The translations under genes were made by a program, and so were the position numbers. DNA of 64,000 nt from Magallana gigas (lineage: Eukaryota): positions 10,478,001-10,542,000 of the forward strand of contig NC_088856.1 in the NCBI RefSeq assembly GCF_963853765.1, read 5' to 3'. Below are positions 30,152 through 46,688 of this stretch, in pieces. Position 1 is the first letter of the stretch. Every line of letters begins with the position of its first letter. The notes beneath the pieces were generated by a model. That model was given only the letters and a program-made list of their open reading frames with translations. It made no database searches and was not told the DNA's origin.

Positions 30152-33100
30152 TCACAGTCTTCTAATCTTCATTTCTGTGGTCTTCAAGGAGTAATGGTAC
30201 CCATGCCATGCCTTCCAGTTGATGCCGTCTGCGTACGAGGGATGATTTCCAGAAAGATACATTCCGTTTAGATTGCATTGGTGACAACGGGTATACCACC
30301 AACCCCCTTTGCTATTTAAAGCACATGAGATTGAATTATCGCGATCTTTTGTGTAAAACTGAGCCCCATTGTGATTTGTAAACGAATCGCCTGAAAAGAA
30401 ATGTACAATTTTTAGAATTTTAGAAATAACTTTTTTATTCAATGATTTTTGGCGAGAATCTAACGACAAAAAATTGATCATAAAATAGCACATCGATACT
30501 GTGGTCTGATTCCGTTTACCAAAAACTCCCCTTTGACAGCCTTTTTGGTAATCTGCAAATCAAACTATATTTTGCCGATATACTGAGTATCGGCGTGAAG
30601 AAAATAATCTCCATAATGTTTATGTGAAAATGTTCTAATTACTTGTAAATTCAAATAACGAAAATTACGAACAGTTTTCGAAAATATCTTATCGCACCTA
30701 GGATCGAGATAATGTCAATACAGAAATACAATATAAAGTTGAAATACCTGCCGTCCCCTCGTAGTCCTCTACATGTAATCGGTAACCAGTTGTTTCATCT
30801 CCAATATAAAATCGTTTGTACACAGCATATCTGCTTTCACTATTAAAGTCAGCCATGTCTATTCGCAATTCATAAAATCCCTGCTGCACTATTTCGTAGA
30901 TTCTATGATTACCTGAATAGATATTGAAAAAGTATTCTATATAAGTTTTGCCAGCAAAACCATCAACCAAATGTTAAACATTTACGATATAATTACGCGG
31001 CAAATGGACTTTTTATATTTATCACCGGGAAAAATATGGCGGTTCTATATATCCGGCGACAATAAAACTAAAATGCTTTAGATGGTAAAAAGCACTTTAT
31101 TTGAACTTTAGGTCGGTAGGGTGAATTCTGGAAATCCAAAAACTACACCCGAACAATCCGAAGCCTAATTCTTGACTGATGATAATAATGAACAAATGAT
31201 ATAAATAAGAATAGTAAACAATAGTAATTAGCACTATAAGCATGAGTGACAGATGACACGGAGTAAAACTTCATATTGAGTGAGTCAATTATATCAAGTC
31301 CACAAAGTTAAGAGTTAATTTACAACGATTAAGCAATTACGCCTTACGTAAACATATGTTTTGGGATTAATGTTTTGAAAGACAAAATGTGATAAAGATA
31401 TTATAGCAATTTGATAACAAATAAAGGAATGTGAATTTGAAGTTTTATACAAAATGTCTTGAATTATAGTTCATTGAAATTTCACTCCATGATAATTCCC
31501 TCTCGCTCCGGAAAATGAGACGTCCTCGTCTCAAAGCTCACCAATGAGGATTGCTGGGTGCACGCGGCCTTTGACCAAAGTAGACGGACTGGTAAAATTG
31601 TCGTTGATTATTTTCCGTGGTCCTTGGTCTGGGCGCGGGAGTGTTGTGAAATCGGTTTCTTGAACTTGAGTTTTTCCTTAAGGCCGCAATGTCGCATTCT
31701 TGAGAGGTGATGATGTCGTTTAAGACTGCTATCTTCTGGTTAGCGATGGTCTGTCTTTGCTTTAGGTCTTTAAGACACTGTTCTAAATCGTAGCAGTCGG
31801 TGCTTAGATTGCTAACGACATTCTTTAGCAGTTTATTTTGATTTCTCAGCGTTGTCATGTGGTCTTGAATTACAACAGGCTTAAATAATTTTTGAATGTC
31901 TTCTGGACTCAAGTGCTGGAACGGCAGCTGTTTCACAAGTTCCAGTCGGTTGTAATAATCTTTAATTCTTTTTGCGTCCCGGCGTCGTTTGCTTAAGGTC
32001 TTGGTTTGTGCAAGGTGCATTCTACATTGCGAAATATCAGCAATTGCAACACAAACTTCTTGAGGCTTTTTCTCAGAAATTCCTACAGTAGGGTCGAGTT
32101 TTGATCCTGCTTGGGTATCAGTCGATCCTACAGACGATACTGTCCGATTGCAGGTCCTTCCATCCTTGGCCGAACCGTTTTTGAACGAACGTTTGTCGTT
32201 GGTCGCCACCGGGTAAGTTTTCCGCGGATGAGAATGGCAAGGAATGGTTGCGTAGAAGCACATTTTAGCATAATGGCCAAGTAATCCACACACGAAACAC
32301 TCCGAACGTGTAGCTGGACACGAGTACAGGTGTCCGCGGGTAAAAGTATTCCCGCACCTGTAGCATGCTGGACAGGATCCAGGTCTGGAGTGTAGTCGTG
32401 CAAGTCCTGGGGGTGTCCAGAAACTCGAAAAGCAGCGACGCTGGTTTGATGGTCGAAATGAGCGGGGAAATCCTCTGCTCTTGGGTTGCATTTCTGAGAC
32501 GTTGAATAACAATCTCGGGGAAACTCGCTTTGTTGTTGGTACACGGAATCTAACTGCTACAAAGTTTATGCAGCAGCCCCGGGTGAATTACCCGGATTCT
32601 CCACCAAACTATCACCGGGAAAAATATGGCGGTTCTATATATCCGGCGACAATAAAACTAAAATGCTTTAGATGGTAAAAAGCACTTTATTTGAACTTTA
32701 GGTCGGTAGGGTGAATTCTGGAAATCCAAAAACTACACCCGAACAATCCGAAGCCTAATTCTTGACTGATGATAATAATGAACAAATGATATAAATAAGA
32801 ATAGTAAACAATAGTAATTAGCACTATAAGCATGAGTGACAGATGACACGGAGTAAAACTTCATATTGAGTGAGTCAATTATATCAAGTCCACAAAGTTA
32901 AGAGTTAATTTACAACGATTAAGCAATTACGCCTTACGTAAACATATGTTTTGGGATTAATGTTTTGAAAGACAAAATGTGATAAAGATATTATAGCAAT
33001 TTGATAACAAATAAAGGAATGTGAATTTGAAGTTTTATACAAAATGTCTTGAATTATAGTTCATTGAAATTTCACTCCATGATAACTTATCACCGTGTGA

Positions 33101-46688: not shown

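Follow-up and report, generated by a model that had tools for sequence, protein, structure and literature searches.

The insertion described here lies in a 64,000-nt stretch of Magallana gigas DNA (contig NC_088856.1, positions 10,478,001 to 10,542,000), which we call the window and whose coordinates are used throughout. It contains a very young and intact Ty3/gypsy element with long terminal repeats (LTRs), a chromodomain and an F-type env gene, next to a small gag-only element, both on the minus strand. On balance, we favour the reading that this partner was co-inserted with the autonomous element and that Env carries its own membrane-anchored budding adaptor with a predicted matrix fold. 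The matrix-like Env tail is the main addition made here and is a prediction with modest scores; like the co-inserted partner, the Gag-Pol readthrough signal and the gag-env splice sites, it goes beyond an earlier note on this DNA. That note had given the span as 33088-45209, which stands for the autonomous element. The insertion unit is wider (31020-45209, 14.2 kb), because a 4-bp target-site duplication (TSD) also encloses a non-autonomous element of 2065 bp. The unit consists of the following parts (PBS, primer-binding site; PPT, polypurine tract; RT, reverse transcriptase):

45210..45213, no strand: outer TSD copy on the 5' LTR side (AATA on the element strand)
43600..45209, minus: 5' LTR of the autonomous element, 1610 bp, termini TATCA...TGATA
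43585..43599, minus: 3-nt spacer AGT, then PBS TGGTGCAGAGAT, an imperfect match to the tRNA-Ala 3' end
41948..43570, minus: gag, 540 aa from the first Met (43570), with capsid domain and two zinc knuckles, ending in TAG
37625..41947, minus: pol, 1440 aa, with protease, RT, RNase H, integrase and chromodomain (37685-37813), from open reading frame (ORF) and Pfam
34701..34712, minus: PPT and 3-nt spacer AAT
33088..34700, minus: 3' LTR of the autonomous element, 1613 bp, from LTR alignment
33132-33199, 34222-34289, 43644-43711 and 44731-44798, minus: 68-bp repeat with AATAAA and a splice acceptor, two per LTR
33085..33087, minus: junction AGT between the elements, equal to the LTR-to-PBS spacer of the autonomous element
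31020..33084, minus: non-autonomous LTR element, 2065 bp, termini TATCA...TGATA as in the large element
32610-33084 and 31020-31494, minus: partner LTRs, identical, 475 bp each
31538-32491, minus: partner ORF, 317 aa, with a zinc knuckle and no pol
31016..31019, no strand: outer TSD copy beyond the small element

The large element is almost certainly a Ty3/gypsy element with an F-type env. It has the order protease, RT, RNase H and integrase, direct LTRs, a PPT and a 4-bp duplication (here around the composite; single copies elsewhere have their own). The gag frame (stop to stop 41948-43630, 560 aa) matches Pfam Retrotrans_gag, and the domains of pol follow one another as aspartyl protease, RVT_1, RT_RNaseH, Integrase_H2C2, rve and Chromo. 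The catalytic motifs reported earlier are all present: LVDTGAS at pol residue 90, YVDD at 516, RNase H residues at 663/705/730/773, and integrase HHCC at 925-966 and DDE at 993/1053/1087. The chromodomain after the integrase scores above the cutoff (PF00385, E=1.7e-6) and is shared by relatives in the genome. A 33-bp tandem repeat in gag (42342-42506, minus) encodes an Arg/Asp-rich stretch ahead of the zinc knuckles. The env frame (stop to stop 34979-37504, 841 aa) matches Baculo_F (E=3.9e-11) and carries the RxxR and fusion peptide signature at residue 164 exactly as first described; the F-type assignment is supported. When the RT/RNase H region was compared with solved structures, it scored 473 bits with Ty3 Gag-Pol, 201 with a caulimovirus-type protein, 157 with foamy virus and 110 with a protein of the murine leukaemia virus (MLV) type. 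As Ty3 is the nearest of the solved structures, the element belongs to the Metaviridae and not the Retroviridae; a true endogenous retrovirus was rejected on this match and on the position of RNase H (630-785) directly after RT, where retroviruses have a tether and a second RNase H. The earlier label "endogenous retrovirus" thus fits only when the term is used loosely to take in errantiviruses: intact gag, pol and env, an F-type ectodomain with furin site and fusion peptide, and a chromodomain also mark the errantiviruses of PMC13524379, as far as the available text of that survey describes them. The class is already known, as the earlier note had recognized, because that text describes intact multi-copy env-F elements in oysters and other bivalves. 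The guess of a probable bivalve host was correct: it is an oyster, and the 90%-identity cluster has members from Magallana gigas and M. angulata.

Exact alignment of the two LTRs gave 0 substitutions and one 3-nt indel in a G-run, so that the earlier statement of a difference in G-run length only is borne out, with no hidden mismatches; in RNA reads, the length of this run differs between copies. The termini are TA...TA and not TG...CA. Across 2085 LTR bases of both co-inserted elements there are 0 changes, corresponding to a divergence below ~0.14%. Together with the three open ORFs, this agrees with the description of a very young and intact element. Each of the genes claimed to be uninterrupted is open, but gag and pol do not form one open frame: they share a reading frame that is split by a single TAG. 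Matches to env at ≥99% identity were found in at least eight places in the genome. Four of these eight near-identical copies have gag, pol and env free of stops and frameshifts, while the remainder contain a large deletion, frameshifts, stops or insertions; in four other copies, 1, 2, 14 and 1 substitutions separate the two LTRs. The genome also holds at least five further, diverged env-F families, several with LTRs that are 99.4-100% identical. In a tree of 18 loci, all retrieved in this analysis, the diverged env-F families and an env-less relative form one clade (99/98 support). Copies are mosaic, pairing internal regions that are ~98% identical with LTRs only 69-84% identical (the reverse in one copy), which would fit recombination between co-packaged RNAs.

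Several related sequences were observed alongside these copies. Short LTRs of ~520-550 bp are without the stretch between the two 68-bp repeats, and in one insertion (G000:C5:32.15-32.16 Mb) the 5' LTR is short and the 3' LTR long, within a single duplication. A tandem derivative with env and pol deleted (L084, G000:C3:51.87 Mb, window-equivalent 35036-37409) has an env deletion joint that also occurs in DNA-type runs X5 and X10. Related families (L163-L180) vary in their termini (TATC...GACA, TG...CA, TA...TA), with the readthrough motif in most; among them, L177/L178 has a single ORF and TA...TA termini, and its retrieved stretch showed no env. A 9351-bp contig (L221, viral_contigs) with gag, pol, env and the tail domain (E 4e-23) is probably a circularly permuted retroelement. 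Within the window there is another env-F gene, broken and from a diverged family (25183-26876, minus; Baculo_F E=5e-8), near an N stretch (24283-24413).

Co-integration of the pair, in which two linear cDNAs were joined end to end and then integrated in a single event, is highly probable. Single copies of the large element, and also of the small one, each have their own 4-bp duplication, whereas here neither element alone is duplicated: AATA stands before the large element and after the small one. The AGT at the junction consists of the bases at which an unprocessed cDNA would end. A double insertion at one site was rejected, as it predicts that the duplication recurs a third time between the two elements, where AGT is found instead. 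The partner has LTRs, a PPT, a tRNA-Ala-type PBS (9-10 nt of pairing), no pol, and termini common to the autonomous family, and is therefore a non-autonomous LTR element of the TRIM/LARD-like type; only 4 homologues of its ORF were found. The PBS of the large element begins with TGG and pairs with tRNA-Ala of this genome over 5 nt and imperfectly thereafter, and the one pattern searched gave no better tRNA. Exact duplications are present in 33 of 60 terminus clusters, taken from loci chosen by similarity and not meant as a census; both element types lie inside four of these 33. The AGT is kept after the large U5 end in 3/4 mixed insertions; in one of the three it is joined tail to tail to the 3-nt spacer of the small element, and in another it is followed by a PPT remnant. 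A genome-wide search for the direct-junction pattern gave four matches, two of them the same junction, against two in the control. One match to this pattern (L069) was rejected as chance, as were L119-L121 among 42 LTR-PBS pattern matches. Tandem arrays or fused LTRs of two small non-autonomous subfamilies (L075, L076, L077) have one duplication each, and a 227-bp insertion of LTR ends only (L079, G000:C5:18902351-18902577) has an internal inversion and a 4-bp duplication around it. As to insertion polymorphism, the repetitive flank left no readable joint or loose end at 45209/45210 among the matches listed for DNA-type runs X5 and X10, and at the empty paralogous site (21566-21743) the introns are too diverged for alignment across the insertion point. 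A literature search, with subscription journals and Repbase outside its scope, found, among the titles and abstracts listed, no report of hetero-pair co-integration, of the readthrough motif or of the matrix-like Env tail considered below.

The expression signals of the autonomous element, predicted apart from the LTR intron, are:

41917..41950, minus: predicted readthrough signal (UAG-G, 8-nt spacer, 9-bp hairpin)
43646..44336, minus: LTR intron, 691 nt, GT-AG, with donor GTAAGT and a pyrimidine tract and CAG acceptor (RNA contig joint)
42109..42115, minus: predicted donor site G|GTAAGT for splicing, within the first gag CxxCG knuckle
37413..37440, minus: predicted splice acceptor with pyrimidine tract and TAG|G, phase 1, in frame with the gag donor

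The UAG between gag and pol is very probably subject to programmed readthrough. The hairpin has a fold z of -4.68, matched by 0/200 shuffles, and the motif recurs at the gag-pol border in 10/14 loci, including families whose protease regions are as little as 32% identical; the four loci lacking it are decayed, deleted or single-ORF. In the hairpin alignment, 90% of cells pair, compared with 23-44% in slid controls, and 7/500 shuffles reach 90%. Two observations count against this prediction, namely that the covariation score of the hairpin is not above that of shuffles (37/500) and that the hairpin is missing in one locus. A metagenome scan gave 12 distant loci (31-41% identity), with the readthrough motif in 0/12 and env in 1/12. 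The spacer of the MLV readthrough signal is 8 nt.

The family is transcribed, which does not imply transcription of this locus itself. In RNA run X7, a 9337-nt contig covers the whole internal region with 15 differences, at a depth of 53 versus 1.2 in a flank bin where DNA-type runs reach 33-65; the family is thus present in oyster RNA as a full-length contig that does not single out this copy. RNA contigs carry no strand or level information, and the raw reads are few (27, 139, 39 and 144 of ~12.9 million). The joint of the 691-nt LTR intron occurs in X7 (at a contig end), with a similar one in X19, and is not among the joints listed for X5 and X10. Three reads have poly(A) tails at 34249, a position that fits either copy of the 68-bp repeat. 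A template-switch adaptor was seen in three single-cell reads at window position 33392, marking a possible transcription start inside the LTR intron.

Env is probably expressed by splicing from gag. The motif G|GTRAGT was found at the first CxxCG knuckle in seven of the eight families in which the knuckle was found (10 tested), compared with 10/51 control Gly-Lys/Glu pairs in long ORFs, and the phase-1 acceptor lies upstream of the env signal peptide. In one intact family, no Met stands ahead of this signal peptide, and the family without the gag donor has an env Met of its own. Of 12 long gene models from other bivalves, nine join gag to env at the first knuckle, and in the model P0267 (1296 aa), which is possibly from the same genome and possibly ab initio, the junction is exactly as predicted. 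Weighing against splicing, the gag-env joint was not seen among the RNA joints listed, at low depth and in contigs that drop rare forms.

The Env protein can be divided as follows (TM, transmembrane helix):

35633..37372, minus: signal peptide and F-type class I fusion ectodomain (Pfam, structure prediction)
37004-37015, minus: furin site RSKR, then the fusion peptide (signature at env residue 164)
35330..35632, minus: membrane region with TM1 (aa 625-648), basic residues, a signal-like segment (649-670), an acidic loop, TM2 (703-725) and basic residues
34982..35329, minus: C-terminal domain of 116 aa (726-841), beta-rich, predicted to be cytosolic and to have a Mononegavirales matrix-like fold

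Env, both TM helices and the tail are kept down to ~26-35% identity across bivalves and a gastropod. The RxxR motif is retained in 70/81 sequences of an alignment made from the query and 80 of the best 120 homologues, picked for length and for having no fused gag. When the predicted tail structure was searched against 48,161 entries, all eight best matches were matrix proteins, from four virus families; two independent models gave the same match, which covers 81-99 of the 116 residues with modest scores. The positive-inside charge pattern favours a cytosolic tail, which is net basic (median +5), while sequon density does not discriminate the side of the membrane. On these models, matrix homology of the tail is fairly likely, whereas a role in budding is conceivable at somewhat less than even confidence. 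Sequence searches of the tail against Pfam, PDB sequences and the Atlas gave no usable match, M/VP40 included, the matches of the membrane region and tail to the Atlas all scored < 0.8, the full Env had no match among PDB sequences, and a profile search with the env alignment returned no viral protein in the best 120 of 148. The best structural matches of the whole Env are chu-like (jingchuviral) glycoproteins (730-1230 aa) and an 801-aa abalone herpesvirus protein (A0A145VUZ2), with E from 8e-28 to 6e-19 and 12-16% identity. Chu-like proteins are also the best viral glycoprotein matches of the tail alone, and A0A145VUZ2 is not among the 50 BFVD matches listed for it. Env homologues from scallop and soft-shell clam (P0026, P0116, P0120) bear automatic names taken from ORF68/Y068, suggesting that they are related in sequence to the oyster herpesvirus protein.

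The proposed mechanism would run as follows. Full-length RNA would yield Gag, plus a little Gag-Pol by readthrough of the UAG before the hairpin. A splice linking the first zinc knuckle of gag with the env acceptor would yield a Gag-Env precursor that keeps the capsid and loses the RNA-binding knuckles; F2/F1 and a second, small membrane protein would then be released from it by signal peptidase and furin. The cytosolic matrix-like domain may then line the membrane and recruit capsids, which is the job of MA in retroviral Gag. Partner RNA would be packaged and reverse-transcribed by the same machinery, and linear cDNAs would sometimes be joined end to end and integrated as one unit, as at this locus. 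The matrix-fold tail, if the models are right, is likely to explain how such elements wrap themselves in membrane. That this particular copy is able to move between cells, as had been proposed, is a tentative suggestion.

An alternative that we consider rather unlikely is that the element is an ordinary member of the published mollusc env-F clade, whose tail is a conserved beta domain with another role, such as trafficking or fusion control, and resembles matrix proteins through a common fold arrangement. The restriction of the eight best matches to matrix proteins of four virus families, and their recovery from two independent models, argue against a common arrangement, as do the finding that the viral glycoproteins nearest the ectodomain are also the best for the tail and the charge pattern that puts the tail where a matrix protein sits. 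It is also unlikely, a little more so, that the element moves only inside the cell and that env is intact because the copy is young, being unused for transmission. Very low read counts, the unseen env splice, the env-deleted derivative in this genome and two other DNA-type runs, and the env-less relative with TA...TA termini in the same clade would all fit such a life; on the other hand, env is kept in at least five further families of this genome, and the conservation of Env, its furin site (70/81), TM helices and tail to ~26-35% identity across bivalves and a gastropod implies long-term selection on Env function.

For the pair, adjacency could have arisen by separate insertions at one site, later recombination or an assembly error, which we regard as improbable. 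The analysis covered a single assembly, a 4-bp match would occur by chance about 1 in 100 times, and the direct junction pattern has only two real junctions genome-wide. Separate insertions would nevertheless be expected to leave a third duplication copy between the elements, where the cDNA end spacer AGT is found; a single duplication encloses each of three further hybrid insertions, and the host gene, otherwise open, has the same intron on either side of the pair. That the element drives or marks transmissible neoplasia of bivalves, in the manner of Steamer, is very improbable; recent activity in a bivalve would fit such a role, and the low copy number (at least eight near-identical env copies) counts against it. 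We therefore retain co-insertion and a matrix-like Env adaptor as the preferred reading of the locus.

This reading bears on two questions, the route by which Ty3/gypsy elements build an enveloped particle from a captured fusogen and the viral source of env-F. If it is correct, a cytosolic matrix fold in Env would offer a testable budding mechanism and a second marker towards chu-like viruses, and would imply that an order for which only GP, NP and L are described has a concealed matrix protein. The pair, as a co-integrate, would be a genomic record of autonomous and passenger cDNAs in one cell, and would reveal the 3-nt unprocessed cDNA ends and the TA-3' processing sites of the integrase. 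More speculatively, the env of the mollusc clade may be a captured "fusion plus matrix" module shared with chu-like viruses. Budding would then depend on an Env-borne matrix domain and a spliced capsid-Env tether and not on Gag MA, the jingchuviral matrix would lie concealed in the end part of the glycoprotein, the herpesviruses of oyster and abalone may have a fusogen from this lineage, and particles would carry co-integrating gag-only passengers.

The surrounding gene is the following:

30155..45709, minus: host gene with fibrinogen-C domain, exons otherwise open

The composite lies in sense orientation in its intron between exons near 45260-45362 and 30745-30930. A fibrinogen-domain gene of a farmed oyster, likely an immune lectin, thereby gains 14.2 kb of intronic sequence that carries poly(A) and splice signals. 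Fibrinogen-C-domain genes stand in tandem in the window (20770-22663 and 30155-46732, minus), and the exon joint 45362/45557 is present in RNA contigs of X7 and X19. Elsewhere (54084-54608, plus) there is an ORF with a farnesoic acid O-methyltransferase domain (E=1.6e-21).

Tandem or multimeric LTR insertions exist in other systems, such as Ty1/Ty5 multimers, TRIM arrays, double insertions and 2-LTR circle junctions. These share with this locus the presence of several cDNAs in one duplication; here, two different elements with only terminal motifs in common are joined by unprocessed ends. Steamer has a single gag-pol ORF and no env, and the present element differs in having env. The Env tail resembles Mononegavirales matrix proteins (Borna M 3f1j, Marburg/Ebola VP40, and the M proteins of NDV, hMPV, RSV and measles) in its predicted fold, predicted cytosolic position and basic charge, and chu-like glycoproteins match both ectodomain and tail, a likeness seen in structure matches (12-16% identity). 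In the text available, the ICTV profile of jingchuvirals lists GP, NP and L and leaves a matrix protein unmentioned (PMC10770922), and HaHV-1 p119/OsHV-1 ORF68 is tabled as an envelope fusion protein (PMC6353905). Troyka elements also have termini other than TG...CA, and membership in that group was rejected, as they are described with CG...CG and a 3-bp duplication versus TA...TA and 4 bp here (PMC12440569, in part).

Stop-codon readthrough is established, according to the accessible parts of the sources, for MLV (UAG plus a 3' structure) and for the in-frame-stop Ty3/gypsy elements Tj1/Tosmo (PMC5009743; 10.1101/2022.12.06.519325). All of these have gag and pol in one frame with a stop between, as does the oyster element; the fission-yeast elements use UGA-CU and MLV a pseudoknot, while here there is a simple hairpin with a fixed spacer motif. 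The life cycle of insect errantiviruses such as gypsy and ZAM is marked by Env-dependent transfer from soma to germline. Env-F is made from spliced RNA in Drosophila insect endogenous retroviruses, and in the idefix subclade the upstream exon is described as lying within gag (PMC12992720, in part). In contrast to that subclade, the oyster element is predicted to fuse Gag almost in full, as far as the first zinc knuckle, and it has a pol-terminal chromodomain, predicted readthrough, two Env TM helices and a matrix-like tail. The closest comparison is with the survey of Chary and Hayashi (PMC13524379), which, in the text available, places chromodomain-bearing elements in a clade from Cnidaria, Mollusca and Annelida and could not link env-F to one viral family from ectodomains alone. 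Judged from its descriptions, its errantiviruses share the gag-pol-env order, the F-type env with furin site and fusion peptide, the chromodomain after the integrase, and multiple young copies. That study modelled ectodomains only, and its main text is without matrix, splicing, readthrough, non-autonomous, malacoherpes or jingchu. Its Mollusca_Bivalvia_Cari_errantivirus_2 is like the oyster element in its 12-nt PBS and chromodomain, and its 551-bp LTR is like the short LTR variant found here.
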